Assembly: GCA_963737265.1 (NCBI GenBank)
Contig: CAVTRY010000023.1
Coordinates: 384,001 to 448,000, forward strand
Origin: an uncultured delta proteobacterium
GTDB taxonomy: Bacteria; Myxococcota_A; Polyangia; Fen-1088
DNA: 64,000 nucleotides
Direction: 5' to 3'
The position numbers and the translations under genes are program-made. The notes under the pieces are model-generated. The model saw only the letters and a program-made list of their open reading frames with translations, searched no databases and had not been told where the DNA came from. Each line of letters opens with the position of its first letter. The stretch's first letter is position 1. Below, piece by piece: positions 6,584-58,570 of this stretch.

Positions 6584-7768
6584 CTAGAAACACCGAGCTG
6601 CGTTGCCGCCCCCGCCAGCTTCATCTGGCGTGCAGGTCAATCCTGCGCCGCACGTTCGGTTCGCGATGGCACCGGTTCCGCAGCAGAGCTCTCCGCTAGC
6701 TCCGCACGACTCGCAAGTTGGCGCTCCTCCTCCTGTGGCGCGGCAGACCAGCGTTGGCAACGAGCAGGTGCCGGCAAAGCCGACACCGCCGCCACCGGGA
6801 CAGCACGCCTGGCCCGACCCACCGCATGGCTCGCAAGTGTCGACGCCGGCTGCTGCTCTGCATGCCAATCCAGTGCTGCAAGTTCCACCGCCGCCGGGAC
6901 AACAGGCCCGACCCACGGTACCGCACAACTCGCAAGTGCCTCGGCCTGCGCCCGCACATGCGGATCCCGACACCGTGCAGGTTCGGCCCGCACAGCAAGG
7001 ATCGCCCGCTGCTCCGCAAGAACCCGCGTCCGATTCACACCCACCGGCCGTGCAGATGCCGCCAACTGCCGTTCCGCAAGAGCTTCCTGCCGCCATGCAC
7101 CTGGTCGTTGCTGTCGGGCCGGCGCCCACGGAAACGCAGCAGGCGCCGCTGCTGCTGCAAGTCCGGGCCGCGCAGCAGACCTCGTTGTCGTTACCGCAAG
7201 CGACTGCGCCATCGACCGCCAGAGCGTCTGGCGTGGCCGGAGCGTCGACCGCGACGTCGCGATTGACAGGAGGATCTTCCGCGGCGTCGATCACCGACCC
7301 GCCGTCAAGATGGACGGTGCCACCAGTGCTTGTTCCGCCGTCGGCAACGCCTGCGCCACCGGAGCCAACCGTGGTACCGCCCGTGACGGTCGCGCCGCCC
7401 ACGCCCGTGAGACCACCGCCGCCAACCGTTGCGCCACCCGTGAGAGCTGCGCCCCCAGCGCTCGCTCCAGCCACACCGCCGGCGCCGCTAGAGCCGCCGC
7501 CGCCGCCGCCGGTCGAACCCGTGGTACCGCCGCCGGCAGCCGTTGTTCCGGCTGTGCCCGTTGTCCCGCCAACAGATGTCGTCGAGCCGCCCGTGCCGCG
7601 CGTCGAGCCGCCGGCCGCGCCAGCGTCCCTGTTTCCACCTGCGGCGCCGTCATTCGCCGATATCCCGTTTGAATTGCTTGAGCACCCCGCCATCGCCAAA
7701 GCGACAACGGCGGCTCCCAAGAGCCACGTGCGGGGTGTGATGACTAAAGCGAATTTACGCTGTTCCAT
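6584..7768 (-). CDS. Cys-rich repeat lipoprotein, paralog of 4907-6370
   Basis: Lipobox LAMAGC; Gly/Thr linker; repeated CG..G..CC modules; GGAGG upstream of ATG 7768. Confidence 0.8.
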   Translation of the reverse strand: MEQRKFALVITPRTWLLGAAVVALAMAGCSSNSNGISANDGAAGGNRDAGAAGGSTRGTGGSTTSVGGTTGTAGTTAAGGGTTGSTGGGGGGSSGAGGVAGASAGGAALTGGATVGGGGLTGVGGATVTGGTTVGSGGAGVADGGTSTGGTVHLDGGSVIDAAEDPPVNRDVAVDAPATPDALAVDGAVACGNDNEVCCAARTCSSSGACCVSVGAGPTATTRCMAAGSSCGTAVGGICTAGGCESDAGSCGAAGDPCCAGRTCTVSGSACAGAGRGTCELCGTVGRACCPGGGGTCSTGLACRAAAGVDTCEPCGGSGQACCPGGGGVGFAGTCSLPTLVCRATGGGAPTCESCGASGELCCGTGAIANRTCGAGLTCTPDEAGGGGNAARCF

Positions 7769-7928
7769 GGATTTGCCTCCAATGCTGTTTGGGAAAAAGA
7801 CCACCAACCGATTAGAGGCGATGCACGCGAAACTCCGTCACGTGGAACCCCCGACAAGACGCGATTTTGGCCCACGCTGTGACGAGGCGCACCCAGTCGA
7901 CGGGTGGGAGCCGCTCCATGCGCCGCCC

Positions 7929-8132
7929 CTATTCGCGCCGCGCTATCTCCTCCACGAAATAGGCGCTACGATGGCGCGCGTCAGGTAGGTGAGAGTCCCA
8001 ACATGCGGGCGAGCAGAAGACGAGCTTGATCTTGCCGGAGTTGCACGTGGAGACCGAGCATCGAATGACCTTGCCACCCACGGGGATGGGCTTCCGACAC
8101 ATGGAACACATGAATGCAGTGCTGCCAGACAT
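7929..8132 (-). CDS. small stand-alone zinc-finger protein (ZZ-like)
   Basis: CSMC...CSVSTC...FCSPACWDSH...RH ligand pattern in 67 aa. Confidence 0.65.
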   Translation of the reverse strand: MSGSTAFMCSMCRKPIPVGGKVIRCSVSTCNSGKIKLVFCSPACWDSHLPDARHRSAYFVEEIARRE

Positions 8133-32030: not shown

Positions 32031-33902
32031 GTGAGGTGCCCGACCCCGGTCGTAGTGGTGCTGCTCGGCGCGAGCTGCCGGGGACCGTCGGCGGGTGTCG
32101 CCATCGGATCGGCGCAAGGGCGAGAAACCCGAAGCAACATTCTCCGCTCGGACTACGTTGGCTCCGCCGCCTGCGCGCCCTGTCACGCCGAGATCTACGC
32201 CCGATGGCGCGCCTCGCCTATGCACCAGATGACCCGCGATCCCGAGCACGCCGAGATCCGCGCGCCCTTCGCGGGCGAAACCTTCACCTTCAAGGACGAC
32301 AGGGCAACCTTGTTCCGCGCGGGAACATCGCGCCTTGTTCGCGTCGCTTCAGCGGCCAGCGGCGAACATCTGTATCGGGTCACGCGCGTGATCGGCAACC
32401 GCTTCCGCGAAGACTTCGCTGGCGTTGAAGTCACATCGCCCACGGACAACGTCCGGCGCGGCTTCGTGCCCGAGCTGGTGTTGCCGGTGACCTACTATTT
32501 CCAGACGCAAGGCTATCGTCCCAAGGGGTACTCGGTCATGACCCACGAACGACCGGGCCTGCGCGCGGGCGCGGTATGGAACCAAACCTGCATCTTCTGC
32601 CACAATACCGTCCCCTGGTTCGATACTGCGTGGGGCGCGTTCGCCGGACAGTCGCCGCCCGCTTACCAAGGCGTGGTAGTGGATCGCTTGCTGCCCGAGT
32701 CGCGGCGCTTCGAGTACCGCGTAAACCACGCTGCGGCCTTCCGCGCCGCCATTGCCGACGAAGAGACAGTGGTCGGCGCGCCGCCCGCAAGCGAGCCACA
32801 GGACAATGCCGCCGCCGCGCGCGCGGGCATGCGCGCCTTGGCGAGCAAGCTCGAGGGCCAGCATCTGGTCGAGGAAGGCATCGGCTGCGAATCCTGCCAC
32901 GGCGGCGGGCGCGAGCACGCCGTGGATCCGCGCGTGCGAACGTCCTTCGCACCCCACGGCGACTTTCTCGAAGTCCGGCCGCCAGCGGGCGGAACGCCCT
33001 CGCGAGCGCTGCTGATCAACCGCACCTGCGCGCGCTGCCACCAGGTTTTGTTTTCCCGCTACCCCTACACCTGGGAAGGCGGCCTTCGGCACGGCGGTCC
33101 ACAGGGCGGCAGCACGACCACGTCGGGCGAGGCGCGCGACTTCTTGCTGGGCGGTCCGGCGAAGAACCTTGCGTGCACGGCTTGCCACGATCCGCACGCC
33201 GCGGACACGCCCGAGGCACTGGCGAAGCTCGGGACACCCGCGGGCAATGTGGTTTGCCTCGACTGCCACAAATCCTTCGCGAGCCCGGAAGGCCTCGCCA
33301 GCCACGCGCACCACTCGCCCACCGGCCCGGCGGGTGCCTGCATTGCCTGCCACATGCCCCGCAAGAACATGGCGCTCGACTACTCGCTTACGCGCTACCA
33401 TCGCATCGGATCGCCCACCGACAGCGAGCGCGTGGAACGCGATCGTCCCCTCGAATGCGCTCTCTGCCACGCCGACGAGAGCGTGGCGCAACTGGTGGGC
33501 GACATGGAACGTCTGTGGGACAAGAAGTACGACCGGGACAAATTGACGGCGCTTTATGGAGATCTGGGCGAAAATGCGCTGGTGGCGACGTTGCTTCGCG
33601 GAAAGCCGCACGAACAAGTGACCGCGGCCATGGTGCTCGCCGAGCACAGGGTGACTTCCGACCAAACTTCGGCGGCGCCGCTGGTCGCGCGCATGCTCGC
33701 CAGCCCCTACCCGCTTGCCCGTCGCTTCGCGGCCCAAGCCCTGGGGTCGATGCTCGAAGGGCCATGCGTTCTCGACGTGGATGCCCCTTTTGAAACTATC
33801 CGGACCGCTCTTGCTAGCTGCGGCCTCAACCTATCCGACCTGCCCGCCCTGCCCACGACTGCTAAGTTGAGACCCAAGTCCGACGAGCGAGACGAAGACT
33901 GA
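32031..33902 (+). CDS. octaheme cytochrome c lipoprotein with helical-repeat C-terminus
   Basis: Eight CxxCH motifs: CAPCH, CIFCH, CESCH, CARCH, CTACH, CLDCH, CIACH, CALCH; LGASC lipobox. Confidence 0.88.
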   Translation: MRCPTPVVVVLLGASCRGPSAGVAIGSAQGRETRSNILRSDYVGSAACAPCHAEIYARWRASPMHQMTRDPEHAEIRAPFAGETFTFKDDRATLFRAGTSRLVRVASAASGEHLYRVTRVIGNRFREDFAGVEVTSPTDNVRRGFVPELVLPVTYYFQTQGYRPKGYSVMTHERPGLRAGAVWNQTCIFCHNTVPWFDTAWGAFAGQSPPAYQGVVVDRLLPESRRFEYRVNHAAAFRAAIADEETVVGAPPASEPQDNAAAARAGMRALASKLEGQHLVEEGIGCESCHGGGREHAVDPRVRTSFAPHGDFLEVRPPAGGTPSRALLINRTCARCHQVLFSRYPYTWEGGLRHGGPQGGSTTTSGEARDFLLGGPAKNLACTACHDPHAADTPEALAKLGTPAGNVVCLDCHKSFASPEGLASHAHHSPTGPAGACIACHMPRKNMALDYSLTRYHRIGSPTDSERVERDRPLECALCHADESVAQLVGDMERLWDKKYDRDKLTALYGDLGENALVATLLRGKPHEQVTAAMVLAEHRVTSDQTSAAPLVARMLASPYPLARRFAAQALGSMLEGPCVLDVDAPFETIRTALASCGLNLSDLPALPTTAKLRPKSDERDED

Positions 33903-35060: not shown

Positions 35061-36098
35061 ATGCGTCTGCGTCCGCGCTTCAGTCTCTTTGCCCTTTTCG
35101 CCCTTCCGGCGTGCCTCAATCTGCCGCTACCGCGGGCCATTCCGGCATCCGGCATCGCCGGCTCGCCCAAAGCGTCGATGACGTCGCCGCGGACCAAGAG
35201 CGAAAATCCATTCGCGGGCGCCTATTTTCTGGTCGATCCGGATTCGAATGCCAACCTCCAGGTGCAGCGCTGGAAAGACACCCGCCCCGCGGACGCGGGC
35301 CTCATGAAGAAGATCGCGGATCAGCCGACCGCGGCCTGGTTCGGCGATTGGACTCCGATGATTGAAGCGGCCGTTGCGAAGTACGTGGAGAGCCACACCC
35401 GCATTGGCGCCCTGCCGGTCTTCGTGCTTTACAATCTTCCCCACCGCGACTGCGGCCAATATTCCAAGGGCGGCGCCAGCGGCGCCGAAAGCTACAAGCG
35501 CTGGATTGACGGCGCAGCGAGGGGCATCGGCGCGCGACGGGCCGTGGTCGTGCTGGAGCCCGACGCGCTCGGCCTGCTCGACAAGTGTCTTTCGCCGCAG
35601 GATCAGAAAGAGCGCCTGGCGCTCATCCGCTACGCTGTCCACATGCTCGAATCCACGCCGGGCGCCGCCGTGTACATGGACGCCGGCCATGAAGCCTGGC
35701 TAGAACCCGAGGAAATCGCCAAGCGACTCAAGGCCGCCGGCATCGACGAAGCCACCGGATTTGCCCTCAACACGTCGAACTATCGAGCCACCCTGCCGCT
35801 TGTTGCCTTCGGCACCGCCGTATCGAAACTGGCGGGTGGAAAGCACTTCATCATCGACACCGGACGCAACGGTAACGGTCCCGCCAATGCTGAGCCTGGC
35901 AGCGAGGCGTCGTGGTGCAACCCCGGAGGTCGAGCCCTGGGAACCCCGCCGACCACTAATACAGGCAATCCGCTGATCGACGCTTTCTACTGGGTCAAGC
36001 CGCCCGGGGAATCCGACGGCGCCTGCAACAAAGGCCCACGCGCCGGCGTATTTTGGGCCGAGTACGCGCTCGGCTTGGCCAAACGCGCGAAGTGGTAG
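35061..36098 (+). CDS. glycoside hydrolase family 6 (endoglucanase-like), possibly lipid-anchored
   Basis: YNLPHRDC, LEPDAL, YMDAGH, NTSNY, DTGRNG, WCNP, WVKPPGESDG. Confidence 0.92.
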   Translation: MRLRPRFSLFALFALPACLNLPLPRAIPASGIAGSPKASMTSPRTKSENPFAGAYFLVDPDSNANLQVQRWKDTRPADAGLMKKIADQPTAAWFGDWTPMIEAAVAKYVESHTRIGALPVFVLYNLPHRDCGQYSKGGASGAESYKRWIDGAARGIGARRAVVVLEPDALGLLDKCLSPQDQKERLALIRYAVHMLESTPGAAVYMDAGHEAWLEPEEIAKRLKAAGIDEATGFALNTSNYRATLPLVAFGTAVSKLAGGKHFIIDTGRNGNGPANAEPGSEASWCNPGGRALGTPPTTNTGNPLIDAFYWVKPPGESDGACNKGPRAGVFWAEYALGLAKRAKW

Positions 36099-36182: not shown

Positions 36183-36857
36183 TTACGGTGTATTACAGCT
36201 CGTGCTGCAGTAGCTTTCACCGCAGGCAAGCAAGCTTGACAGGTTCGCGACTGCTGACGAATAGATGGTCTCGCAATTGTTCATGCATGTGGTGTCGCTG
36301 GTGGAGCAAGCCGAAATACAGCTTGACAGGCTCACGCAGGATGCCTGGCCATCGCAGGCGGATAATTGGGGACAACAGGACTGATCTATGCAAAGGGTAC
36401 ATGCGGTAGCCGTCGATGACGGGTTGCACGCAGTGCCGGTGGACCCTGCGGAGCCTCCGTAACCTCCGCCGCTTCCGCCCGAGGCGCCCCCTCCACTTCC
36501 TCCGTAGCCGCCACCGGCGACCGGGGGCTGGCATTTGCTTGAACTGGAGCAATCAGCTATGTAGCCTTCCGTAACGCAGGCGGAGGCATTGCCATTTCCA
36601 CAGTCGATAACCGTAGAGCAGGCTACCTGCGAAGACCAACAGGTACCGGTACCGGGACAATAGTAGACGTCACCCGTGCCGCACGCCGCTTCGATCTGGC
36701 TATAGCACACATCGGCTGCTCCGGATGAGCTCGCACCCCCGCAAATAAAGCCGGTGGGGCATTCCCCAGTGGTGGAGCATTCGGTGCTACCGCTTTGGTA
36801 GGTGGGGCTGCAGCTCAACAGACCCGCGACGGCATAGGCCAAGGCGATTCGTTTCAT
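36183..36857 (-). CDS. Cys-rich lipoprotein
   Basis: Lipobox LLSC; two Cys-rich domains split by a Gly linker (CTLCIDQSCC...C). Confidence 0.75.
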   Translation of the reverse strand: MKRIALAYAVAGLLSCSPTYQSGSTECSTTGECPTGFICGGASSSGAADVCYSQIEAACGTGDVYYCPGTGTCWSSQVACSTVIDCGNGNASACVTEGYIADCSSSSKCQPPVAGGGYGGSGGGASGGSGGGYGGSAGSTGTACNPSSTATACTLCIDQSCCPQLSACDGQASCVSLSSCISACSTSDTTCMNNCETIYSSAVANLSSLLACGESYCSTSCNTP

Positions 36858-36872
36858 GAAGTTCGAGCTCCT

Positions 36873-37943
36873 CTAATATGCGTAGTGAATAACGGCACCA
36901 ACCGAGTCGGGGCGGACGACCGGCGCCAGCGCTACAAAGTTGGATGCGTGATGATCCTTGGTCGCCATCATGATGATGGCTGTCACGACGCCTGCCGCTC
37001 CCAGGCCGTAACATACGCCCTGGATATCGGCGTAGGTTTTTCCCGTACTGTCCTTGCTTGGGTTGTATTGTTTCTCGGTATCGGAAAAAGCGCTCTGAGA
37101 CAGGTAGGTAAAGATTCCGCCTGTGGCAAGGACCGCGACTCCAATACCGCCAACGATCCAAGCTGCATTATTGTTGCTGGGCAAAGGCGCGCTTCGATTA
37201 CTGGTGTCCGCGCCCAATCCAGCGGCGGAAGCGCTTTGATTCTCTGTCGCAGTTGGGGAGCCGTACACCGGCAAGACCGGCGGATATTGCGTGTCCGACG
37301 GAGGGTTGTACTGGGCCTGTGGGTAGACGGGTTGCGGGCTGTATTGGGCCTGGGGATAGCCAGGCTGGGTGCCGTGCTGACTTGCTGCCGGGTACCCATA
37401 GTCGCTCGGCTGCGACGGGGGCATGGCCGGAACGTCCGGTGCGGGCTGCGCGACGGGCGCGGCGGACGGCGTCGGCGGCAAAGCTCCCGGCAGCGCGGAG
37501 GCCGGTGGCGCCGGCGTCGTCACTACCGGCACGGGCAGCGCAGTGGCAGCAACTGGTGGCGTCGCGGCCTGGCCGCGAAGATGTTCGAGCTCGCTAATCC
37601 AAGCCTCTACCTCGGCGCGATCGTCGGCGGTGATGTCCTTTTTGCGGTGCAGGTAATCCCGCAAATTGGAAAGGGCAGGATCGTTTCTGCGCAGATAGTA
37701 ATAGCAAGCGCCCAGGTTGCGCACGAACACCAACATGTCTGGGTGGGCAACGCTCAGGTTTACGAAGACCCTGGCCGCCTCCTCGTAGTGCCCCTCCTTG
37801 TAGAGTCCGATGGCTTCCTTGGCATCGGCCTTGCCCTTCTTATCGAGATCGGCGGCCGCAGCAGATCTCACCGCTATGGGTAGGCTCCACACGAAACCGG
37901 CAACGAAGACACCGAGAAAGATAACGGTCAGTGAACGCGCCAT
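36873..37943 (-). CDS. TPR protein with Pro/Tyr/Gln-rich linker and hydrophobic C-terminal membrane region
   Basis: Signal peptide; LYKEGHYEEAA...NLGACY TPR; YPQAQY repeats; two hydrophobic segments; terminal aromatic strand GAVIHYAY. Confidence 0.75.
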   Translation of the reverse strand: MARSLTVIFLGVFVAGFVWSLPIAVRSAAAADLDKKGKADAKEAIGLYKEGHYEEAARVFVNLSVAHPDMLVFVRNLGACYYYLRRNDPALSNLRDYLHRKKDITADDRAEVEAWISELEHLRGQAATPPVAATALPVPVVTTPAPPASALPGALPPTPSAAPVAQPAPDVPAMPPSQPSDYGYPAASQHGTQPGYPQAQYSPQPVYPQAQYNPPSDTQYPPVLPVYGSPTATENQSASAAGLGADTSNRSAPLPSNNNAAWIVGGIGVAVLATGGIFTYLSQSAFSDTEKQYNPSKDSTGKTYADIQGVCYGLGAAGVVTAIIMMATKDHHASNFVALAPVVRPDSVGAVIHYAY

Positions 37944-39556
37944 TCGTCTTCCCTTCCCTGTATTGGTTTGGGCACCAGCTTGCGTGCCGCTGCGCCAGAG
38001 CGATGCTCGCCGTGTGTCGCCGCGGACTTGGTCGAGACTTCAACGCGAGGGGTGTCTAAAGGCTCAAGATCCACCGACGTGGACGTGTTTCCTTTGAGGG
38101 CGATGGCGACGGACCTTTCCTTGTAGCCGGCCATGTGCAGAACGACTCCCAGCGCGCCATCGCCCTGCGGGTAGGACTTTTCAAGAGGGGTCTGGCCGAG
38201 CACCGCGCCGTCCTTCCCGTCCACTACGACCGCACCCGCAGGCGAGCTGCTGACACGCACGTGGACGGGCGCGCTAGGAGCCGCGCTCGGTGCAACGCGA
38301 GCGACATTTCTGAAAACTGCTGGTTGGCCAGCGCCGACCGGCGCCGACGAGCTGACCGGGCGAAGCATTACGAACAGGGCGAGCCCAGCGGCGACAGCGC
38401 CGATGGCGGCGACGATCGGCCATCGCTTGGGTCGCAGGCTCTTCAGGTCTGTGTCGCTCGCCGAGGCATCGGACGACGACGTCGACTCGCCGCTGGCACG
38501 GGTAAAGGTGGTGACGCTCGGGCTCGGCGCGTACACCGTCCCCGGGGGCAGCGCGGCAGTGACTGCACGCCCCGAATCCGATGCGGGCTTGGAGGACGTT
38601 TGCCCCTGGCCCTGGTCGCTTGCCGAATAGACGGCCGTGCCTGTCGGATGCGCAGATTCATTCTCTCCGAAGAGCGCGCTTCCCTGATTGGTCAGCGCCG
38701 GGTAGGTGCCAAGCAGGGCACCTACAAAATAGTCCACGCTGTCGTAGCGCAAGTCGCGCTCCTTCGACAAGGCGCGCATCACGGATTGGTCGACGTAGTC
38801 GGGTGCGTCCGAGACGAGCGACCTCAATGGGGCAGGACTGGCGGTGAGCTGCAGGACCAACATCTCGGTGGTGGATTGGCACGCAAACGGCGGCACGCCC
38901 GCCAGCATTTCGTACACCATGATGGCAAGCGAATAGATGTCGGATCGGTGATCGACCTCGGAGCTGTCGCGACACTGCTCGGGCGACATGTACGCCGGGC
39001 TGCCCATGAGGAGTCCGGCTTGCGTCCTTACCGTCGAGGCGCGGTCCCCGCTATGCTTGACCTTGGCGATGCCGAAATCGAGCACTTTCACGCGAAATCC
39101 CATCGACGAAGGCGCGTCTGGCACCAAGAAAATATTCTCGGGCTTGAGATCGCGGTGGACAATCCCGGCTGCGTGGGCAGCCGACAACGCGGAACCAGCT
39201 TGGCGGGTGATTTCCTGCACCAGCCGAAGCGGCATCCGGCCCTGCTGAAGCAGCCGCTTCTGAAGGGAATCCCCTTCCAGGAATTCCATCAGGATGTACG
39301 GTTCGCCTTCCGGAGTTACACCCGCATCCAGTACCTCGATGATGTTGGGGTGGCGGATCGCGCTCGCCGCCCGAGCTTCATTGAGAAAGCGGCGCACCAG
39401 CTCTGGATCCTCGACCATCCCCTTGTGCAGAACTTTGATGGCGGCCCGCCGCTGCAGGAATTGATTGCGGGCTTCGTAAACCTCGCCGAACCCGCCCTCG
39501 CCAACCAAACGCACGACTTGATAGTTTCCGAAGGTCTGTCCAGTCGCCAGCGCCAT
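37928..39556 (-). CDS. membrane Ser/Thr (Hanks) kinase with extracytoplasmic PEGA-like domain
   Basis: GEGGFGEV, AIK, HRDLKPEN, DFG, YMSPEQ; TM helix; VSSSPAGA..GQTP. Confidence 0.95.
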   Translation of the reverse strand: MALATGQTFGNYQVVRLVGEGGFGEVYEARNQFLQRRAAIKVLHKGMVEDPELVRRFLNEARAASAIRHPNIIEVLDAGVTPEGEPYILMEFLEGDSLQKRLLQQGRMPLRLVQEITRQAGSALSAAHAAGIVHRDLKPENIFLVPDAPSSMGFRVKVLDFGIAKVKHSGDRASTVRTQAGLLMGSPAYMSPEQCRDSSEVDHRSDIYSLAIMVYEMLAGVPPFACQSTTEMLVLQLTASPAPLRSLVSDAPDYVDQSVMRALSKERDLRYDSVDYFVGALLGTYPALTNQGSALFGENESAHPTGTAVYSASDQGQGQTSSKPASDSGRAVTAALPPGTVYAPSPSVTTFTRASGESTSSSDASASDTDLKSLRPKRWPIVAAIGAVAAGLALFVMLRPVSSSAPVGAGQPAVFRNVARVAPSAAPSAPVHVRVSSSPAGAVVVDGKDGAVLGQTPLEKSYPQGDGALGVVLHMAGYKERSVAIALKGNTSTSVDLEPLDTPRVEVSTKSAATHGEHRSGAAARKLVPKPIQGREDEWRVH

Positions 39557-39717
39557 GTCGACAAGTCCTCGCGCGGTATTGTTACGCCAAGCTTCACGAA
39601 AAATGAAGGACTTTCTTCACGCGTGGCGAAAGAAAACACGTCCTCGCCGCGGCGGCGCGCCCCGAATCATGTGTTGCGGACCCGGGCGGCCACGACGATA
39701 ATGCCAGCCGATCGCAC

Positions 39718-41193
39718 GTGATTGGGACGACTATCGGCAACTATGAGGTGCAGCGTCTTATCGGAGAAGGCGGGATGGGGAAGGTGTATCTGGCGGTCCA
39801 TCCCGGCATCGGACGCCAGGCCGCGGTCAAGGTACTCACCCCGAGCGACGCGGCGGATCCACAAATCGTCAGCCGCTTCATCACCGAGGCGCGCGCGGCG
39901 AATGCCATTCGCCATCCGAATATCGTCGACATCTACGACTCGGGCGTCATCGAGGGCGGCACCCCGTACATCGTCATGGAGTACCTCGACGGCGAAACGC
40001 TCACCCAGACGCTCGGCCGCGGGCCGCTGGCAGTGGCGGATGCCATCGACTGGGGATGCCAGATCGCCGAGGCGCTCGCGGCGGCACACGCCCACGACGT
40101 CGTGCATCGCGATCTGAAGCCCGACAATTTATTCCTAGTCCCGGATCCGCGGCGCCTGGGAAAGAAGCAGGTGAAGGTTCTCGACTTCGGCATCGCCAAG
40201 CTACAGCGCCGAACCATGGGGCAGGTCCACAAGACCCGCACCGGCGCGCTGCTCGGTACGCCGCTCTACATGTCGCCCGAGCAGTGCATGAGCATCAAGG
40301 ACATCGATGCGCGGACCGACATCTATTCCCTCGGCGTGATCCTGTACGAGATGGTGACGGGCAAGCGCCCTTTCGACGGCGACGGCGTGTATGCCGTCAT
40401 CAGCATGCACGTCAACGACAAGCCGGCGGCGCCCACGACCCTGCGGGCCGATCTGTCACCCGAGCTTGAAGCCATCATCTTACAGGCGCTGGCCAAGACG
40501 CCGGCGCAACGTCAGGGCTCGATGGCCGAGGTGCTGTCCCAGCTGGAATGGGCGCGCGGCAATCCCGCGGCCAGCAGCGAAGCGCTCGCGCGTTCGCAAC
40601 AGGACCGCGTAAAGGCCATTCCATTGCTGCCTTCGCAGCAAGCGACCTTGCCCGAGATCAAGACCCTCGGCGACACCGCGACATCCAAAGGCGTGACCGC
40701 GCAGACGGCGCGCGGGCGGGGCCTGTCCCGGTCCTGGCTGCTGGCTGGCGCAGTCGGCGCGGTGGTTGTCGGCCTGTATCTTCTCGCGCCGTTCGGACGC
40801 AAGACCAATGCCCCGGCGCCGGCCGCCTCCACCCCGCCCGTGACGGTCCCACGCGCTTCCCCGGCATCGTCAACTCATCCCTCTTCGCCCCCATCGGCGC
40901 CCGAGCCGATCGAGCTCGGTCTCGACAGCGTACCAGCTGGAGCAACCGTGTTCGTGGACGACGTTCTGGTCGGCACCACGCCCACGACTTACAAGGTTGC
41001 CCCGACCGACGCGCCGATTGAGTTTGTCTTCCGCATGCCGGGATTCGAACCGGAAAAGATCCGCGCCCTTCCCGCCAGAGGCCTCAGGATCAGTGCCAGC
41101 TTCAGCAAGCCGACGCCCGTCAAACGCGCCGCCGGACCGAAGCGCAAGCATGGCCAAGCGGGATCTTCGAGCGACATCCAATTCGAGCGCTGA
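39718..41193 (+). CDS. membrane Ser/Thr (Hanks) kinase with extracytoplasmic PEGA-like domain
   Basis: GEGGMGKV, AVK, HRDLKPDN, DFG, YMSPEQ; TM helix; DSVPAGATVFVD..GTTP. Confidence 0.95.
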   Translation: MIGTTIGNYEVQRLIGEGGMGKVYLAVHPGIGRQAAVKVLTPSDAADPQIVSRFITEARAANAIRHPNIVDIYDSGVIEGGTPYIVMEYLDGETLTQTLGRGPLAVADAIDWGCQIAEALAAAHAHDVVHRDLKPDNLFLVPDPRRLGKKQVKVLDFGIAKLQRRTMGQVHKTRTGALLGTPLYMSPEQCMSIKDIDARTDIYSLGVILYEMVTGKRPFDGDGVYAVISMHVNDKPAAPTTLRADLSPELEAIILQALAKTPAQRQGSMAEVLSQLEWARGNPAASSEALARSQQDRVKAIPLLPSQQATLPEIKTLGDTATSKGVTAQTARGRGLSRSWLLAGAVGAVVVGLYLLAPFGRKTNAPAPAASTPPVTVPRASPASSTHPSSPPSAPEPIELGLDSVPAGATVFVDDVLVGTTPTTYKVAPTDAPIEFVFRMPGFEPEKIRALPARGLRISASFSKPTPVKRAAGPKRKHGQAGSSSDIQFER

Positions 41194-41203
41194 CGAACCC
41201 GCC

Positions 41204-44093
41204 ATGAAATCGACCTTCAGCGCATTCCTCGCACTCGTTGTGTTTGCCACCTCGCCCGCGACCAAGGCGGAGAATGTCGCCAGTCCGGCGCCGCCGGCGC
41301 CCCTCGTGGAGCAAGCGGATGAAGCGCAGTTCCACTTCCTGCGCGGCAATCGCGCCTACCAGGAGAAGCGATTCGAAGACGCGCTCGCTTCGTACTACCT
41401 TTCCAATCGCAGGGTTCCCAATCGCAACGTGCAGTTCAACATCGCCCGTTGCCTTGACCGGCTCGGCCGCTACGACGAATCCTACCGCGCATGGACCACG
41501 CTGCTCGACCAATCGCTGCCCGACAGGGAAAGGCAGGCGGTGCGCGAGGCGATCGATGGGCTACGCCCCCACCTGGCGTTGCTCGAACATCGCGACCACG
41601 CCACCCGGTGCGACTATCTTCGCCGGCCGCCGCGATCTAGGCGCGCTCGGCATCACGCCGAAGAGCCTATCCCTCCCCGCCGGGCTCACCAAGATCATTC
41701 TCGAACGCGATGGCTATCGGCCGGTCGAGTTGGTTGCCGAGCCGAGCAAGGGAAAGCAGATCAAGCTCTCCACCACGCTGGAGCAAATCTTCGGCGAGAT
41801 CGACGTCCGACGCCTGCCGGAAAACGCCGAAATTCGCCGCAACTTTCTCGACGGCGAAGTTCTTCGCCGCGGACCTGGAAGCGCCAGGATCCTTCCCGGT
41901 CGGTCGGTGCTGTTTGTATCCGCGCCGGGATTCCAAACCGAGCGGGTCGTGGTGGATGTGCTGGCCGATGCCGCCGTTCGGGTCGATGTTCTAATGTCGC
42001 CGGCCGTCGCCCCTACTGGAACCCTGGTGGTGCGGGCAAATATCGCTAGCGCGCTCATCCGCATCGACGGCAAGGAGGCCGGCTTCGCTCCTGCGGTGAT
42101 CGACGGTGTCGCAGCGGGCTCGCGCCTCATCGAGATCCTCGAAGAAGGTCGACAACCGTTCCGCGAAATGGTCGAGGTCAAGCAAGGCGAGCGCGCCTTC
42201 GTCGACGCGCACCTCGGGCACGCGGACACCCAGGTCACGGCGGCAACCAAATCCGCCGTCGCATCGGAGTCGGCGCCCGCTTCCATCACCATCATCACCG
42301 CCGACGAGATCGCGGCGTTCGGCTACACCACGCTGGTCGAAGCGGTCAACGCCGTTCGCAGCACGTTCACGTCCAACGACCGCAGCTATGAATCGATCGG
42401 CTTTGGCGGCTTCTCGCCGCCGAGCGACTACACCAAACGCGTGTTGGTGCTCGTCGACGGCCATTCCGTCAACGACGTCGTGACCGGCCAAGCTTATGTC
42501 GGTCACGATTTCGACGTCGATTTGGCGAATGTGGCGCGCATCGAGATCGTCCGCGGTCCGGGCTCCGTGCTGTACGGAACAGGCGCGCTCTTCGGCGTCA
42601 TCAACGTCGTCACCCGCCGCGCCGGCCTTGGCATGCACGCGGCGGTCAACACCACGGCCGGCACCATGGGAGTGGCGTCAGCGCGCGCAACCGCCAGCGC
42701 GCGAGCGGGTAACGCCGATGTGATGGTCAGTGTCGGTGCCATGACTAGCGACGGAGACGTTCGCTTCGTCGTGCCTGCCGACATCTACACCAACGTGCCG
42801 CAAACCGTATTGAACGCGGACGGCGAGCGGGCCTTTCACGCCGATGTTATCGGCCACCTGGGGCCCTTTTCCTTGCGCGGCGGCTACAACGATCGAAAGA
42901 AGAACCTGCCGACCGATGCCTATGATACGCGGCCGTGGCTCGGCACCAGCCATCTAGACGATCGCCGCAGCTATGCCGAGATTCGCTTCGATCAGGATTT
43001 CCAACACTTCCATCTGGCGGCACGCGCCGCTTACGACAAGAGCGCCTTTCACGGACACTACGTCGGCGACGGAAGCGCCGACGACCCAACCAGCGACGAG
43101 GACATCGGCGCGCAGTGGATTACGGGCGAGTTGCGCCTCGAAACGCCAGTTTTCATGCGCCAGCGCTTCACCTTCGGCAGCGAGATCGCAAAACAGATCC
43201 AGCTCCTGACCGCCAATTTGGGAGGCCCGCCCATCGCAAAGGATCTCGTCGCCTCAGCTTATATCGTTGACGATATCGAGGTGACGAATCGCCTGCATGT
43301 CAACGCGGGTCTGCGCAGCGATAGCTACACCAAGAGCTTCGGCACCACCCTCAATCCGCGCCTTGCTCTCGTCGGGAAACCGTACCTTGCGGGCAACACC
43401 AAGCTTCTCATCGGGCGCTCGTTCCGCGCGCCATCGCCGAATGAGCGTGCGGACACACCCGACGGCACCCTACGCCCAGAGGTCATGTCCAGCGTCGAAA
43501 TCGAGCACACCCACGCGGTTAGCGACGACGTGCGCATCGTCGGCGCGCTGTTCGCAAACTGGCTGAACGATCTCATCTTCGAGGTCAACGACCCGCAAGC
43601 CGGAATCATCTACCGGAACAATAGCAACCAGGTGCGCAGCCTGGGGGCCGAAGGCGAGCTGCGCTGGGAGCCCGGGGGAGGCACACTATTTTCCGTTGCA
43701 CTCACGCGCCAGAAGGTCGAGGAGTTGTCGCCCACGGGAAACTCGCCTTTCCTCAATGCGCCGGACACGCTCTTCAAGATGCGCGCATTATGTCCGCTTG
43801 TCGGCTTGGCGTTGCGATTCGGCACCGAGCTGGTGCTGGACTCGGGTCGACACTTCCTCCCGACCGACACGAACGCACCCGCGGCGGATAATCGCGTGGA
43901 CGATGCCGTCCTGTGGAATCTGAGTCTGTCCGGCGAGTACCGCGCCTTTCGCCTGCGCTATTTCGCCGGCATGTTCAACGTGCTCGACGTGCACGATCCA
44001 CGCGCCGGGATCCCCACCAGCATCGATTTCCCGCTCGCCTTGATTCCCCGCTACGGCAGGTCGATGCGAGCCGGGCTGGCTTGGACTTTTTGA
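41204..44093 (+). CDS. TPR-PEGA-TonB-dependent receptor fusion, with a +1 frameshift near 41586 (possible sequencing error)
   Basis: Signal peptide and TPR (FNIARC) in one frame; PEGA domains, plug RIEIVRGPGSVLYGTGALFGVINVVT and barrel ending LAWTF in another; deleting one base in gaac (41585-41588) joins them. Confidence 0.85.
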
Positions 44094-44343
44094 CTCGAAA
44101 TCGCCGCCATACCGTGCGCTTCGTCACACCTTAGACGTCCGCGTTACTACCACCGCGCGGGTTAGGGTCCGTTTTGACGTTGGATCGTCATGGCCTGCCG
44201 CTTTTCTAGGCCGTTTTTGTGGTAGAGGGTTGTGGCGAACCCCGTGTGCGTCGCGCCAGCATGATATACACATTCAATAGTATTTGGGAGTACAGTATAT
44301 GGCGATATTTAGTCCTATTGTCGCACAGCGCAGGAGTAAGTCC

Positions 44344-47300
44344 ATGTTGAATTACAAATCGCGTCGTTCACTGACGTTCTTGTCGCTCTCCTCGGTCTGG
44401 ATCGCGGCATCGCTGCTGTCCGCAGGCTGCCAAAACACCGCTGCGCTGCCCGGCCAGACGGCCGACGGGCCCTCTGCAGGAGGTAGTGGTGGTACCACGA
44501 CGATCGTAATTCCTGACGGCGGCATCTCTTTGTCACAGGACGGTGGCTGCATTTCGAGTTGCACCCCTGCAGGCGGCCAATATTGCGGAACCATCCTCGA
44601 TGGCTGCCAGGGGACCCTCAGCTGCGGCGCGTGTCCAGCGGGCCAACCCTGCGTCGGCGGTGTGTGCGCCAGCGGATCGGGTACCGATGCCGGCGCGCTG
44701 ACATCGTGTGTGGTCACGGGCGGAAGCTACTGCGGAACGATCGGAGACGGGCTGGGCGGCCAGCTCGTATGCGGTGCCTGCAAAGCTGCCGGCTGGGTCT
44801 GCACAAGCGGCGTCTGCACCGCCGATTCCACCGTTTGCCAGGCGAGCACCTGTGGTACGGGCGCCGACAAATACTGCGGCAAGGTCGGCGACGGCTGCGG
44901 ACATGCCCTCGATTGCGGCGGCTGCGCCGCCGACCAGGTCTGCACCAACAACCAGTGCGTGCCCGCCGTTTGCGTGGCCACGACCTGCAATCCCACGGGC
45001 GGGCAGTACTGTGGTGGGGTGCTGGGCGATGGCTGTGGCGGCACGATAACCTGCGGCGACTGCACCACGGCCGGATGGACGTGCCAGGATCACCTGTGCA
45101 AAGGCGGAGCCTCGTGCGCTCCCCTCGCCTGCGGCTCTGGCTCCGGCAAGTACTGCGGGACCATCGGCGACAACTGCGGCAACAGCCTGGATTGCGCCGA
45201 TTGCATCGCGGGTGAGACCTGCGTGAGCAACCAATGCGTGCCGACGAATTGCACACCTCTCACCTGCAACCCCACGGGGGGACAGTACTGCGGCGGCAAA
45301 ATCGGCGACGGCTGCGGTGGAACCCTGGATTGCAGCACGCCCTGTCAGACGGGCTGGGTGTGCTCCGGCAACCTCTGCGTCGGGGATTCGACGTGCATGC
45401 GGCTTGCGTCTTGCGACAACGGTACGCCGTTCAACTATTGCGGCGATATCGGCGACAGTTGCGGCGGCACGCTTCACTGTGGCGCCGATTGTGCCGCCGG
45501 CCAAGTTTGCGACACCGCGAAAGGCCTGTGCAAGGGCGATACGACCTGTGTTCCCACCAAATGCACGAATGGAACAATTTTCAATTACTGTGGCGACATC
45601 GGCGATGATTGCGGCGGAACTCTCCACTGCGGCCAGGACTGCGCCGATGGGCAGGCTTGTGACAGCACGACAGGCCTATGCAAAAGCGACGCCACTTGCA
45701 CACCCGTCGCTTGTCAAAACGGCACTTCCTTCAACTACTGTGGCGATGTCGGCGACGGCTGCGGCGGAACTCTTGCATGCGGCGCCGACTGCGCTGCACA
45801 CCAGTTGTGTGGCGACGATGGAATCTGCAAGGGCGATGGGACATGCCTGAGCTCGACCTGCACCAACGGAACCTCATTCAATTATTGTGGCGACATAGGC
45901 GATGGCTGCGGCGGAACTCTCTCGTGCGGCACCACCTGCGGCAGCCATCAGGTGTGCGGCGCCGACAAATTGTGCAAGGGCGATAACACGTGTAACCCGG
46001 TCACGTGTGTGACTGGGACTGCATTCAACTACTGCGGCACCATCGGCGACGGCTGCGGTGGTGCGCTCGCGTGCAGCAACAACTGTGGAACCGGGAAGAC
46101 CTGCGACACCACCCAGGGCCTATGCGTGGGGGATGCGACCTGCGCGCGCGTGACAAGTTGTAGCAACAGCACCCCCTTCAACTATTGCGGCAAGATTGGC
46201 GACAATTGCGGTGGAAGCCTGAGCTGCGCGACGGACTGCGGCGTAGGCAAGGTCTGCACGAACAATGTCTGCAAGGGCGACGCAAGCTGCACACCGCTGA
46301 CCTGCAAGCCCGCGAGCGGCGGCCAATACTGCGGCGGAACCGTCGGCGATGGCTGCGGCAACTCGATAAGTTGCACCGATGCGTGTCCGACCGGCACGGT
46401 CTGTAGCGGTAATGTTTGCGTTTGCAATGGCGGCCTTGTCTGTCAGGTCGCCCACTGCGACGCCAGCTCGACGACCGTCACGGGAGTCGTCTACGACCCG
46501 GCGGGCGTGAATCCGCTCTACAATGTCATCGTCTACATCCCGAATACCGCCCTCGATCCCATCACGCACGGCCCAACGTGCGACCAATGCGCCACACCGT
46601 CCGGCGAGCCCATCGCGGCCGCGTTGTCGGGCGCCGACGGCAGCTTCACCCTGACCAATGTTCCGAGCGGAACCAATATCCCCATCGTCTTCCAGCTGGG
46701 GAAGTGGCGCCGCCAGGTCAAGATCCCAACGGTGAACCCGTGCGTGGAAAACGATGTTCCCGCCAGCCTCACCCGCTTGCCTCGCAACCAGAACGACGGC
46801 GACGCCGGCACGGTGTCGTTGCCCAAGATCGCCATTACGGCCGGACACGCACGGACCGCGGATAATAGCGTGACCGAGCGATTGCAGTGCTTGCTTCAAC
46901 GCATCGGGGTCAGCGCCACGGAATTTACACTACCGGGCGGAGCCGGGTCTGTCAGCCTTTACAACCAGTCGAATGGTGCGGATTCCTGCAATCAGGTGAC
47001 CGGCGGGAACGGAGCCTTCCCGGATGCGACCACCACCCTCTGGGACAGTCAAGCCCATCTCAATCAGTACGACATGGTTTTGCTCAATTGCGGCGGCGAT
47101 CAGGGCGCGTCCGACCCCAACAATAACAATGTCTATATCTCCCACCCAGATGCCGTCACTCGCATGAAGACCTATGTCAACGCCGGGGGACGAGTCTTCG
47201 CCGAGCATTACCACTGGGATTGGATCAAATCGGTCGCGAACTATCCTTCGACATTCGGCGAGCTCGCGACCTGGAACGCACAAACCGACGTCATCGGCCC

Positions 47301-48051
47301 GAACCCGCGCAACACCTTGGTCGATGTTTCCTTCCCGCGCGGTGTGGCGTTCGCCGAATGGCTGAAGGACGTTGGCGCCTCCACGATTCAGGGACAACTG
47401 ACCATATCGAGTGCGGTCAAGTACACCGCCATCGACCAGATTAACCCGCCCTCACAGCGGTGGATTTACGAGCCCGCCAACCCGGCGGCGCCAACTGGCG
47501 CCGCACAATATACGCACTATTTCAGCTTCGACACGCCGGTAGGCGTGGCGCCCGCCAGTCAATGCGGTCGTTTCGTGTACACGGGTTTGCACGTAAGCGA
47601 CGCTGCGTCGGTTGGCTTCCCCGGCGACCCGGACACGACCTCGGGAAACACCTTCCCTGGATGCTGCGCTGCCCGAACACTGCTCTCGCCGCAGGAGAAG
47701 GTTCTCGAGTTCATGATCTTCGACCTCTCATCCTGCATCAGCAACATCAACTTGCCGCCGCCGCCACCGCCAACGACGGCGATTCCCGCCGCAGCGCCGC
47801 CGGCCCCACCGCCGCCCGCACCGCCGCCGCCGACCTTGCCGGCTAGCCCCTCGCCACCTCCCGCACCGCCACCGCCGCCACCGCCGCCAGCGGCGACAAC
47901 ACCACCCGTTCCGCCATCACCGGCAGTGCCGCCACCGCCACCGCCACCGCCGCCCGTCGCGGCACCGGCACCGCCAGCAGCGCCACCGCCGTCGCAATCG
48001 CCGCCGCCACCACCACCACCGCCGCCCGTGCCAGAACAGTACATCCCGTAA
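44344..48051 (+). CDS. giant Cys-rich repeat lipoprotein with carboxypeptidase-regulatory-like domain and Pro-rich tail
   Basis: AGGAG RBS; lipobox LSAGC; 13 YCGxxGDxCGxxLxC repeats; VTGVVYDPAG.NPLYNV; QEKVLEFMIFDL; poly-Pro C-terminus. Confidence 0.85.
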   Translation: MLNYKSRRSLTFLSLSSVWIAASLLSAGCQNTAALPGQTADGPSAGGSGGTTTIVIPDGGISLSQDGGCISSCTPAGGQYCGTILDGCQGTLSCGACPAGQPCVGGVCASGSGTDAGALTSCVVTGGSYCGTIGDGLGGQLVCGACKAAGWVCTSGVCTADSTVCQASTCGTGADKYCGKVGDGCGHALDCGGCAADQVCTNNQCVPAVCVATTCNPTGGQYCGGVLGDGCGGTITCGDCTTAGWTCQDHLCKGGASCAPLACGSGSGKYCGTIGDNCGNSLDCADCIAGETCVSNQCVPTNCTPLTCNPTGGQYCGGKIGDGCGGTLDCSTPCQTGWVCSGNLCVGDSTCMRLASCDNGTPFNYCGDIGDSCGGTLHCGADCAAGQVCDTAKGLCKGDTTCVPTKCTNGTIFNYCGDIGDDCGGTLHCGQDCADGQACDSTTGLCKSDATCTPVACQNGTSFNYCGDVGDGCGGTLACGADCAAHQLCGDDGICKGDGTCLSSTCTNGTSFNYCGDIGDGCGGTLSCGTTCGSHQVCGADKLCKGDNTCNPVTCVTGTAFNYCGTIGDGCGGALACSNNCGTGKTCDTTQGLCVGDATCARVTSCSNSTPFNYCGKIGDNCGGSLSCATDCGVGKVCTNNVCKGDASCTPLTCKPASGGQYCGGTVGDGCGNSISCTDACPTGTVCSGNVCVCNGGLVCQVAHCDASSTTVTGVVYDPAGVNPLYNVIVYIPNTALDPITHGPTCDQCATPSGEPIAAALSGADGSFTLTNVPSGTNIPIVFQLGKWRRQVKIPTVNPCVENDVPASLTRLPRNQNDGDAGTVSLPKIAITAGHARTADNSVTERLQCLLQRIGVSATEFTLPGGAGSVSLYNQSNGADSCNQVTGGNGAFPDATTTLWDSQAHLNQYDMVLLNCGGDQGASDPNNNNVYISHPDAVTRMKTYVNAGGRVFAEHYHWDWIKSVANYPSTFGELATWNAQTDVIGPNPRNTLVDVSFPRGVAFAEWLKDVGASTIQGQLTISSAVKYTAIDQINPPSQRWIYEPANPAAPTGAAQYTHYFSFDTPVGVAPASQCGRFVYTGLHVSDAASVGFPGDPDTTSGNTFPGCCAARTLLSPQEKVLEFMIFDLSSCISNINLPPPPPPTTAIPAAAPPAPPPPAPPPPTLPASPSPPPAPPPPPPPPAATTPPVPPSPAVPPPPPPPPPVAAPAPPAAPPPSQSPPPPPPPPPVPEQYIP
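44578..46420 (+). repeat. 13 degenerate ~45-50 aa Cys-rich repeats
   Basis: Recurrent (Q/K/N)YCG.(I/V)GD.CG..L.C, counted by eye; boundaries approximate. Confidence 0.85.
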
Positions 48052-58435: not shown

Positions 58436-58570
58436 GGAACGTACCTCTCGTGAGGGTGAACGAAGACTCTCGCCCGGTCTTTGCAACGGAGTATAGCGAA
58501 CCGACCTAATGATCGGTGAACAAAATGCTTCACAACTGTAACGGGGATCTCATTTTTGCCCACCCCAGAG

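Follow-up and report, generated by a model that had tools for sequence, protein, structure and literature searches.

Receptor kinases and their TPR-PEGA envelope partners at a Polyangia locus: conserved pairs and possible docking of kinase tails

This report deals with a kinase locus at positions 36183 to 48051 of a 64,000-nucleotide (nt) stretch of DNA from an uncultured delta proteobacterium (Myxococcota_A; Polyangia; Fen-1088). The whole stretch, here called the window, is C23:384001-448000, a part of one contig of a 6.55-Mb genome with 25 contigs and 63% GC. The locus comprises six genes in two divergent arms, namely kinL, tprL and lipL on the left and kinR, a TPR-PEGA-TonB receptor gene and lipR on the right (TPR, tetratricopeptide repeat). 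In related genomes the conserved unit is the pair of a Hanks-type Ser/Thr kinase gene and the partner gene behind it, not a triplet. The kinases end in short peptides that are conserved class by class, and we lean towards the reading that each of these tails docks on the TPR of the neighbouring partner, so that the right arm would be a Hanks-kinase analogue of TonB-dependent cell-surface signalling.

The six open reading frames (ORFs) listed in an earlier note on this DNA are all present where that note had placed them, as the ORF list of the window and the translations confirm, and its account of gene order and domains is borne out by scans with Pfam and NCBIfam. It was also right in describing the kinase genes as overlapping or abutting their TPR genes: kinL and tprL overlap by 16 nt, and kinR stops at 41193, just before the receptor ATG at 41204.

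The kinase–receptor pair and its conservation

The features of the two kinases and of the receptor are the following.

37928..39556, minus strand: kinL, Hanks-type Ser/Thr kinase, 542 amino acids (aa); Pkinase E 4.5e-45, PEGA 22.7 bits
about 38714-39523, minus strand: kinL cytoplasmic kinase domain (Pfam)
38354-38422, minus strand: kinL transmembrane (TM) segment, the sole hydrophobic segment (aa 379-401; sequence)
38063-38260, minus strand: kinL PEGA domain (Pfam), putatively periplasmic, with a variable basic linker besides
37931..37951, minus strand: kinL C-terminal tail E-D-E-W-R-V-H, conserved in orthologues
39718..41193, plus strand: kinR, Hanks-type Ser/Thr kinase, 491 aa; Pkinase E 4.9e-47, PEGA 22.7 bits
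39742-40533, plus strand: kinR kinase domain (Pfam)
40735-40794, plus strand: kinR TM segment (sequence)
about 40915-41097, plus strand: kinR PEGA domain (Pfam), putatively periplasmic, with a basic linker besides
41170..41190, plus strand: kinR C-terminal tail S-D-I-Q-F-E-R, fitting the class motif [D/E]-I-[R/K/Q]-x-x-R-COOH
41204-44093, plus strand: TPR-PEGA-TonB receptor gene, whole; TPR_2 29.7 bits, PEGA E 3.2e-19, Plug E 1.2e-17, barrel E 5.3e-21
41204..41587, plus strand: N-terminal part of the receptor in frame 2, comprising a signal peptide and a TPR module in which the stretch SNR-x-V-x-N-R-N-V-x-F-N-I-A-R-C is conserved
41585..41588, plus strand: one inserted base that shifts the frame, most likely an assembly error (comparison with contigs of runs X1 and X2 and with five congeners)
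41589..42224, plus strand: three PEGA / CarboxypepD_reg-like beta-sandwich domains (Pfam), presumably a periplasmic stalk
42225..42245, plus strand: candidate TonB box D-T-Q-V-T-A-A just before the plug (sequence, conservation)
42267..44093, plus strand: Plug and 22-strand barrel of a CirA-like TonB-dependent transporter with terminal Phe (CirA, PDB 2hdf, E 3.7e-33)

Both kinases score above the Pfam gathering score for Pkinase (154.5 bits for kinL and 161 bits for kinR, cut-off 31.7), and the PEGA profile exceeds its cut-off of 20.8 in kinL and kinR (22.7 bits each) as well as in the receptor (69 bits). The catalytic motifs are intact (GEGGFG/GEGGMG, AAIK/AAVK and HRDLKPEN/HRDLKPDN in kinL/kinR, DFGIAK in both). 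The C-terminus of either kinase is presumably periplasmic, given the single TM segment and the PEGA domain, which is taken as extracytoplasmic. The two proteins share 46% identity in the catalytic domain only, and closer paralogues of both exist elsewhere in the genome. A recent inverted duplication was considered as the origin of the two arms and rejected on these grounds; BLASTP also finds no match between the two TPR genes or between lipL and lipR. The mirror symmetry that the earlier note had treated as a feature of the system shrinks to a trait of the genus, since the kinases are not each other's closest paralogues and the head-to-head layout of kinL and kinR occurs in 9 of 11 congener loci, G005 and G006 being without it.

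The domains of the receptor likewise exceed their cut-offs (Plug 64.8 bits against 23.9, barrel 76.4 against 27, TPR_2 29.7 against 27). Among 67 aligned N-terminal extensions TPR_2 is detected in 63, PEGA in all and CarboxypepD_reg in 65, and the TPR module matches designed TPR proteins in the PDB. The heptapeptide D-T-Q-V-T-A-A, which we take to be the TonB box, has its Val and Ala-Ala at least 90% conserved in the 67 sequences; such a box before the plug is usual in these transporters, as is an aromatic C-terminal residue, here realised as ...A-W-T-F. PqqU and YncD are further relatives of the transporter part in the PDB, and the protein remains below the cut-off of every NCBIfam TonB-receptor equivalog.

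In the window the receptor is split, with the TPR part in frame 2 until about 41587 and the remainder in frame 3, a point that the earlier note does not raise. Its orthologues in 14 relatives form a single open frame of 954-975 aa, and a DNA alignment reveals one extra base in this genome in comparison with five congeners. Base 41586 is absent from a contig of run X1 (soil metagenome, depth 2.4, otherwise identical) and also from a contig of run X2, which derives from a relative at about 90% identity (depth 5.41). Since the extra base is thus missing from short-read contigs and from five congeners, and since the orthologues occupy one frame, the frameshift is probably an assembly error and the gene intact, not a pseudogene.

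The receptor was searched for in the whole genomes of 60 relatives and in this genome; gene calls in other genomes are our own ORF readings. Full-length orthologues occur in 11 of the 12 congeners (62-67% identity). Four further genera of the same family also have them (46-54%), and more remote ones were found at 31-36%. A kinR-like kinase stands directly upstream in all 17 of the relatives' loci that have upstream sequence (18 loci fetched). A wider scan of named collections, with one genome per species, yielded at least 539 relatives (Polyangia and Myxococcota metagenome-assembled genomes, Sorangium, Labilithrix). Among its best 80 loci, 71 had enough upstream DNA, and in 56 of these 71 loci from named Polyangia genomes a same-strand Hanks kinase lies immediately upstream of the receptor. 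Where a receptor start was assigned (48 loci), the two genes are between -23 and +241 nt apart, the median being 11 nt, and twelve of these pairs overlap by 1 or 4 nt. In a genome from another class of the phylum (L184) a receptor-type partner follows a kinase ending in ...G-I-R-S-Q-R. In this genome only one of the 13 Plug-domain genes is directly behind a kinase; together with its recurrence elsewhere this makes the pairing more than a chance neighbourhood. The earlier suggestion that kinase and TPR protein form a functional pair is therefore strengthened by conserved synteny, by a spacing that suggests translational coupling and by the predicted periplasmic domains of both proteins.

Several loci with other layouts were seen in the wider scan. 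In five Sorangium strains and one metagenome-assembled genome an ATP-binding cassette (ABC) importer, consisting of a TOBE_2 ATPase and two permeases, is found upstream of the receptor instead of a kinase (L074 4180-7386 from Sorangium So ce1099, L075, L079, L083, L085, L097), which hints that the receptor family really transports something. In L051, L053 and L054 (about 6925-7941) the receptor start is overlapped by 1-4 nt by the gene of a 334-aa membrane histidine kinase, in which two TM segments are joined by a very short loop and HisKA and ATPase domains are present; a second, soluble RsbRD_N histidine kinase is encoded farther upstream; L051 and L054 represent one contig with two inverted receptor copies. 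The receptor family thus keeps company with two kinds of sensor kinase. In L032 (G014:C13, 8936-10490, minus strand) kinase and receptor share an uninterrupted open frame of 1491 aa. The cause is a shift of the frame by one base within the Pro-rich linker: the tail ...D-D-I-R-S-E-R with its TGA stands in the +1 frame, and this true tail lies 23 nt before the receptor ATG.

The partner family and the kinase tails

The partner of the left arm differs in layout from the receptor and shows three features.

36873..37943, minus strand: tprL, 356 aa, with signal peptide and C-terminal Tyr (sequence)
about 37569-37856, minus strand: TPR-like module of tprL; TPR_9 E 0.0079, below the Pfam cut-off, assigned by profile comparison
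37101-37166 (aa 260-281) and 36963-37019 (aa 309-327), minus strand: two hydrophobic segments of tprL, after a Pro-rich linker (sequence)

Hidden Markov models of the TPR module detect 33 ORFs in this genome, and 8 of them lie -26 to +47 nt behind a Hanks kinase, against about 0.4 by a rough expectation of our own. Besides the two arms of the locus there are six such pairs (L155-L160), on contigs C13, C22 and C23. The six additional partners consist of signal peptide, TPR, PEGA, Pro-rich linker and two hydrophobic segments. All of them, as well as tprL and the receptor, end with an aromatic residue (F, W or Y), and this ending comes after two hydrophobic segments rich in Gly and Ala.

A profile of these generic partners matches the TPR and the first PEGA domain of the receptor with 99.8% probability (E 6.5e-29). 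The receptor looks like a generic kinase partner in which the membrane anchor was replaced by two further beta-sandwich domains and a CirA-like transporter. The module of the tprL family matches the N-terminal extension of the receptor over 75 columns (hhalign, 97.6%, E 4.1e-12), and tprL in turn looks like a generic partner that lost its PEGA domain. On the strength of these profile comparisons the predicted partners of both arms belong to one phylum-wide, multi-copy TPR-PEGA partner family. It is present in 44 of 61 genomes sampled over the phylum, this one counted, and 18 of its best 30 loci follow a kinase. The extension profile itself retrieves 2,726 representative proteins at E <= 1e-30, each standing for a cluster at 50% identity; among the best 150 matches, 101 combine the TPR module with a barrel and have a median length of 969 aa. 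In 67 extensions the TPR residues N69, N71, N75 and R91 are invariant, and N64, R65 and R78 reach at least 90%. These polar residues look more like a binding groove than like the structural TPR consensus.

The tprL family is multi-copy as well and occurs in 40 of 41 genomes of the taxonomic family, this one counted. A kinase is located directly upstream in 11 of the best 30 tprL-family loci and is divergent in 3. Three paralogues of tprL in this genome have no kinase (C11:541305-545448, C11:203523-205973, C15:90657-93444) and adjoin secreted glycoside hydrolases (GH), namely GH62, GH5 and a GH79C-like protein, with which they have no C-terminal motif in common.

The tails of the 56 receptor-class kinases carry Ile at position -5 and Arg at position -1 in 55 sequences each, Asp or Glu at -6 in 50 and Arg, Lys or Gln at -4 in 49. 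They follow a hypervariable linker: over the presumed periplasmic region of the 56 kinases the mean column identity is 21%, and the only columns with at least 90% are Ile -5 and the terminal Arg. As PEGA is found in only 41 of the 56, the tail is the universal feature. Codon usage within it varies (CGC, CGA, CGT, CGG and AGA for Arg -1, ATC, ATT and ATA for Ile), and the motif survives at 11 loci in which 65-241 nt separate it from the start of the following gene; the constraint therefore acts on the protein and does not reflect a ribosome-binding site. In this genome a single one of 68 kinase ORFs, kinR, bears the receptor-class motif.

Other classes have other tails. The orthologues of kinL end with [D/E]-E-W-[R/L/I]-V-H in all 8 complete congeners, with close variants in G027, G012 and G005. 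Where the adjacent TPR is of the receptor type SNRLVxNRNVxFNIARC, the kinase tail is D-I-R-x-x-R, and the type 'MLVFVRNLGACYYY' of tprL is accompanied by E-W-R-V-H. The type 'LHPNYLRNIGRCYQ' goes with [D/E]-[D/E]-E-P-A-K-L in four same-strand loci (L136, L140, L144, L148) and in L139, the divergent locus of this class. Two paralogues in this genome join the type 'VLYNIGQ' with N-P-[Y/F]-x-[D/E], and further tail classes recur in the phylum sample. The tail class, as assigned from these motifs, changes with the TPR class of the neighbouring gene. Such class-wise conserved kinase tails are new here.

Tail docking and the competing explanations

We propose that the locus can be understood as two paralogous two-gene modules placed head to head, each with a single-pass receptor Hanks kinase and a downstream, probably co-translated envelope partner that carries a small TPR at its N-terminus. 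Such a kinase would have its catalytic domain in the cytoplasm and, beyond the TM segment, PEGA and a variable linker in the periplasm, with the conserved tail at the C-terminus. Its free C-terminal peptide would bind the concave face of the TPR of its own partner, in the manner of EEVD or PTS1 (peroxisomal targeting signal 1) peptides, and by this docking the kinase would gain an envelope sensor of its own. In the right arm the TPR would reach from the barrel in the outer membrane towards the inner membrane on its three PEGA-type domains, and ligand- or TonB-driven changes at the transporter could alter the state of the kinase. In the left arm the partner would be tethered by its Pro-rich linker and a two-segment membrane anchor.

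The earlier note had already imagined a kinase tail docking on its cognate TPR. The class-specific C-terminal hexa- and heptapeptides, whose class tracks that of the TPR, add new support to this idea. A class-specific, conserved C-terminus that follows a hypervariable linker and is encoded beside a TPR gene points to a TPR hold on C-terminal peptides. A much wider proposal, in which Myxococcota wire many receptor Hanks kinases to envelope sensors by a peptide code, with a TonB-dependent transporter as one class that bypasses sigma and anti-sigma factors, is offered tentatively and with more doubt than trust.

A number of observations weigh against docking. Kinases are often lacking next to the proposed partners: there is no upstream Hanks kinase in 15 of the 71 testable receptor loci, no kinase beside 25 of the 33 TPR-module ORFs of this genome and none in 16 of the best 30 tprL-family loci. 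As the same TPR residues are kept where no Hanks kinase adjoins, including Sorangium, the TPR might bind something else, or the gene of its kinase might lie at another place in the genome. The histidine kinase of L051, L053 and L054 ends in its cytoplasmic ATPase domain, so that coupling there cannot use a periplasmic tail. Orthology alone keeps the features of a pair together, and the match between tail class and TPR class is therefore no proof of contact; likewise the loci from related genomes are not independent, and the counts overstate the independent support. Residue covariation between tail and TPR was calculated (mutual information, 48 pairs), and its top pairs, e.g., tail -4 with TPR column 101, were left unused; they follow clades and are thus inseparable from shared ancestry. 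A search with a tail DNA pattern in five genomes without adjacent kinase gave 8 matches, none of which marks the end of a kinase and all of which are noise from other frames, which is a weak negative given the narrow pattern (only Asp at -6, CGN codons for Arg and a TGA stop). Terminators were predicted at chance level (10 found versus 8.8 +/- 3.6 expected). Finally, the assembled receptor gene carries a frameshift, the evidence for the frameshift as an error comes from low-depth contigs, and X1 is possibly the assembly's own source sample.

Several of these points would suit co-regulation without contact, in which the kinase controls the uptake by the transporter, or shares control with it, through cytoplasmic phosphorylation, and the tail serves another periplasmic factor, sorting or turnover. 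Operon-like spacing alone is no evidence of binding, a tail-less histidine kinase replaces the Hanks kinase in three loci, the TPR residues are invariant even beside no kinase, and the Sorangium orthologues behind an ABC importer resemble an ordinary uptake system. Co-regulation nevertheless leaves unexplained why a conserved C-terminus should follow a hypervariable linker and change with the class of the TPR; moreover, both proteins would put tail and TPR in the same compartment. We consider it unlikely, though it deserves serious attention.

In a second alternative, which we rate as quite improbable, the partner is a scaffold by which the kinase is placed or oligomerised in the envelope. It would act at the inner membrane in the left arm and be fastened to the outer membrane in the right arm, with the transporter as an anchor that conveys no ligand information. 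This agrees with the generic partners, which consist of TPR and PEGA with a simple two-segment anchor and no obvious sensor domain, and with the homology of the first two receptor domains to them. Plug, barrel, TonB box and terminal Phe are conserved, however, and this argues for a working transporter and not for an inert anchor. The binding step would in any case be the same as in tail docking, the difference lying only in what is sensed.

More improbable still is the three-part model of the earlier note, in which a Cys-rich lipoprotein is the ligand or the exported cargo of each pair. The two genes in question are these.

36183..36857, minus strand: lipL, small Cys-rich putative lipoprotein, 224 aa, 27 Cys (12.1%), lipobox-like G-L-L-S-C
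44344..48051, plus strand: lipR, putative lipoprotein, 1235 aa, 116 Cys (9.4%), lipobox L-S-A-G-C
about 46426-47763, plus strand: C-terminal domain of lipR of unknown function, roughly 450 aa (sequence)

The lipoboxes (...A-G-L-L-S-C in lipL, ...L-L-S-A-G-C in lipR) were judged by eye against what we take to be the PROSITE-type pattern. In favour of a triplet, lipR is the next gene after the receptor in 7 of the 18 loci from relatives, the trio kinL-tprL-lipL is kept in the genus and in G027, and the tprL paralogue on C15 is followed by a Cys-rich protein (52 Cys, 630 aa). All 7 loci with lipR belong to congeners, however; outside the genus it is found at no locus, and in the congener G006 it is missing downstream despite 6 kb of sequence there. 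Two paralogues of lipR on contig C14 have AbiE, OmpA and PrkA/DUF444 genes as neighbours and no Hanks kinase. Clustering of ORFs over the 80 loci yielded no third conserved downstream gene, the largest cluster being a roughly 160-aa ORF in 10 loci without Pfam match. Furthermore, lipL and lipR are dissimilar, and the receptor stop is separated from the lipR ATG by 250 nt (tprL and lipL by 15 nt). The triplet expected in the earlier note thus dissolves in the neighbourhood survey, and as there is no triplet conservation, nothing supports a role of the lipoproteins as ligand or cargo. From their distribution lipL and lipR appear as what we would call lineage-specific passengers, lipR being a genus-specific neighbour outside the conserved pair.

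As to the lipoproteins themselves, lipL has only 10 homologues in a collection of 5.8 billion proteins, and its syntenic homologues come from members of the genus and from G027, which represents another genus. An alternative frame in lipL (ORF 36217-36552, minus strand) has ordinary codon-position GC but encodes an Arg-rich nonsense product; the lipL frame was kept because it is conserved in relatives. For lipR no Pfam or NCBIfam match was obtained. It contains about 14 Cys-rich repeats of roughly 49 aa each, with a 147-nt tandem unit at 45718-45984, and ends in a long Pro-rich tail of low complexity (window 47795-48029) with short tandem repeats of periods 6-36 nt. The C-terminal domain has 359 homologues, the named ones being all 'hypothetical' or 'carboxypeptidase regulatory-like', and no sequence relative in the PDB.

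A role in anti-phage defence (PD-T4-6 or MADS-like) has a negligible probability and was rejected, since the PADLOC models PD-T4-6 and mad6, though matching both kinases with E down to 3.3e-91, span the generic catalytic domain only, NCBIfam MAD6 gives 151.7 and 178.8 bits against a cut-off of 460, the other five genes have no PADLOC match, the genome contains 68 such kinases, and the domain layout corresponds to a membrane receptor whose partners reside in the envelope.

Surroundings and comparison with known systems

One further feature of the locus is the region between the divergent kinase genes.

39557..39717, no strand: divergent intergenic region of 161 nt between the starts of kinL and kinR (sequence), with presumed promoters

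A promoter scan was uninformative, at chance level, and Rfam gave 0 matches over the whole window, hence no riboswitch. The genes around the locus are unrelated to it (GH6, AhpC, HDOD, DinB, sulfite reductase, ThiC); the GH6 gene at 35061-36098 abuts lipL. Two more proteins encoded in the window are also unrelated to the locus, i.e., a 623-aa multihaem cytochrome with Cytochrome_C7 and paired CXXCH (32031-33902, plus strand) and a 900-aa protein with four Cys-rich DUF4215 repeats (55784-58486, minus strand). Elsewhere in the genome kinase genes are clustered, with three in tandem at C14:172781-176834 and five within 13 kb at C18:86539-99958; a pair of neighbouring kinases is therefore nothing exceptional in this genome.

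Myxobacteria carry tens to hundreds of eukaryote-like kinases. In a 2016 review (PMC4880591) the reason for this large kinome is listed as an open question. The terms TPR, TonB and Mkap are absent from the accessible texts of PMC6213207 and PMC4880591, and PEGA is absent from that of PMC4880591. In the openly accessible part of the literature searched there is no description of a kinase–TonB transporter pair, of TPR-PEGA kinase partners or of kinase tail motifs, a prior mention in a myxobacterial kinome paper, in supplements or in subscription journals being possible. The pairs presented here suggest an undescribed route from envelope signals to myxobacterial kinases. A recurrent pair of kinase and TPR-PEGA partner could explain how many sensor-poor kinases connect to signals, and the transporter-linked class, if it is real, would extend TonB-dependent cell-surface signalling to Ser/Thr phosphorylation.

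In Myxococcus xanthus the accessory Mkap proteins, one of them containing TPR, reportedly associate with several Ser/Thr kinases; their interactions are said to come from two-hybrid screens and not from conserved gene pairs, and we know of no TonB-dependent transporter or C-terminal tail code in connection with them.

Among kinases the closest likeness is to PknB with its PASTA domains, whose NCBIfam model (NF033483) is the best NCBIfam match, below its cut-off. Shared features are the cytoplasmic kinase domain with intact catalytic motifs, one TM segment and a (here presumed) extracellular C-terminal region. In contrast with PknB, PASTA is lacking here, and outside the membrane there would be one PEGA domain (in 41 of 56) or nothing but a linker, in either case together with the tail. 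The task of sensing seems to have passed to a partner encoded by a gene of its own.

It is well established that TPR domains bind C-terminal peptides, as Hop does through TPR1 and TPR2A with EEVD-COOH and PEX5 with PTS1. The kinase tails resemble these ligands as short, conserved peptides at the extreme C-terminus after a flexible linker, and the partners as small TPR modules with invariant Asn and Arg. In contrast with Hop and PEX5, the module is bacterial, presumably periplasmic and built from about two repeats with a capping helix, and the motifs are D-I-R-x-x-R, E-W-R-V-H and E-P-A-K-L.

The transporter part shares Plug, 22-strand barrel, TonB box and terminal Phe with CirA-like transporters, from which the receptor differs by its TPR-PEGA N-terminal extension of 340 residues. 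In the FecA/FecR/FecI system of TonB-dependent cell-surface signalling, the transporter has an N-terminal signalling domain and acts through the anti-sigma factor FecR on an extracytoplasmic function (ECF) sigma factor. The earlier note had drawn this parallel, and it stands as a functional comparison: an extra periplasmic domain precedes the conserved TonB box in both cases, and the gene is paired with that of a single-pass inner-membrane signalling protein with a (here presumed) periplasmic C-terminal part. Membership in the Fec group does not follow. The extension consists of TPR and three PEGA-type domains instead of STN, for which Pfam gives no match in the receptor or in the 67 extensions; the inner-membrane partner is a Hanks Ser/Thr kinase and not an anti-sigma factor; and the locus, with kinases, lipoprotein, GH6 and HDOD genes as neighbours, contains no gene for a FecR-type anti-sigma or an ECF sigma factor. 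The receptor may thus work like a FecA-type transducer without being one, and the contact proposed for it, a C-terminal peptide in a TPR groove, is of a different nature. The right arm would in this way join two known kinds of system, i.e., trans-envelope signalling via a TonB-dependent transporter and receptor kinases that sense through an accessory protein.

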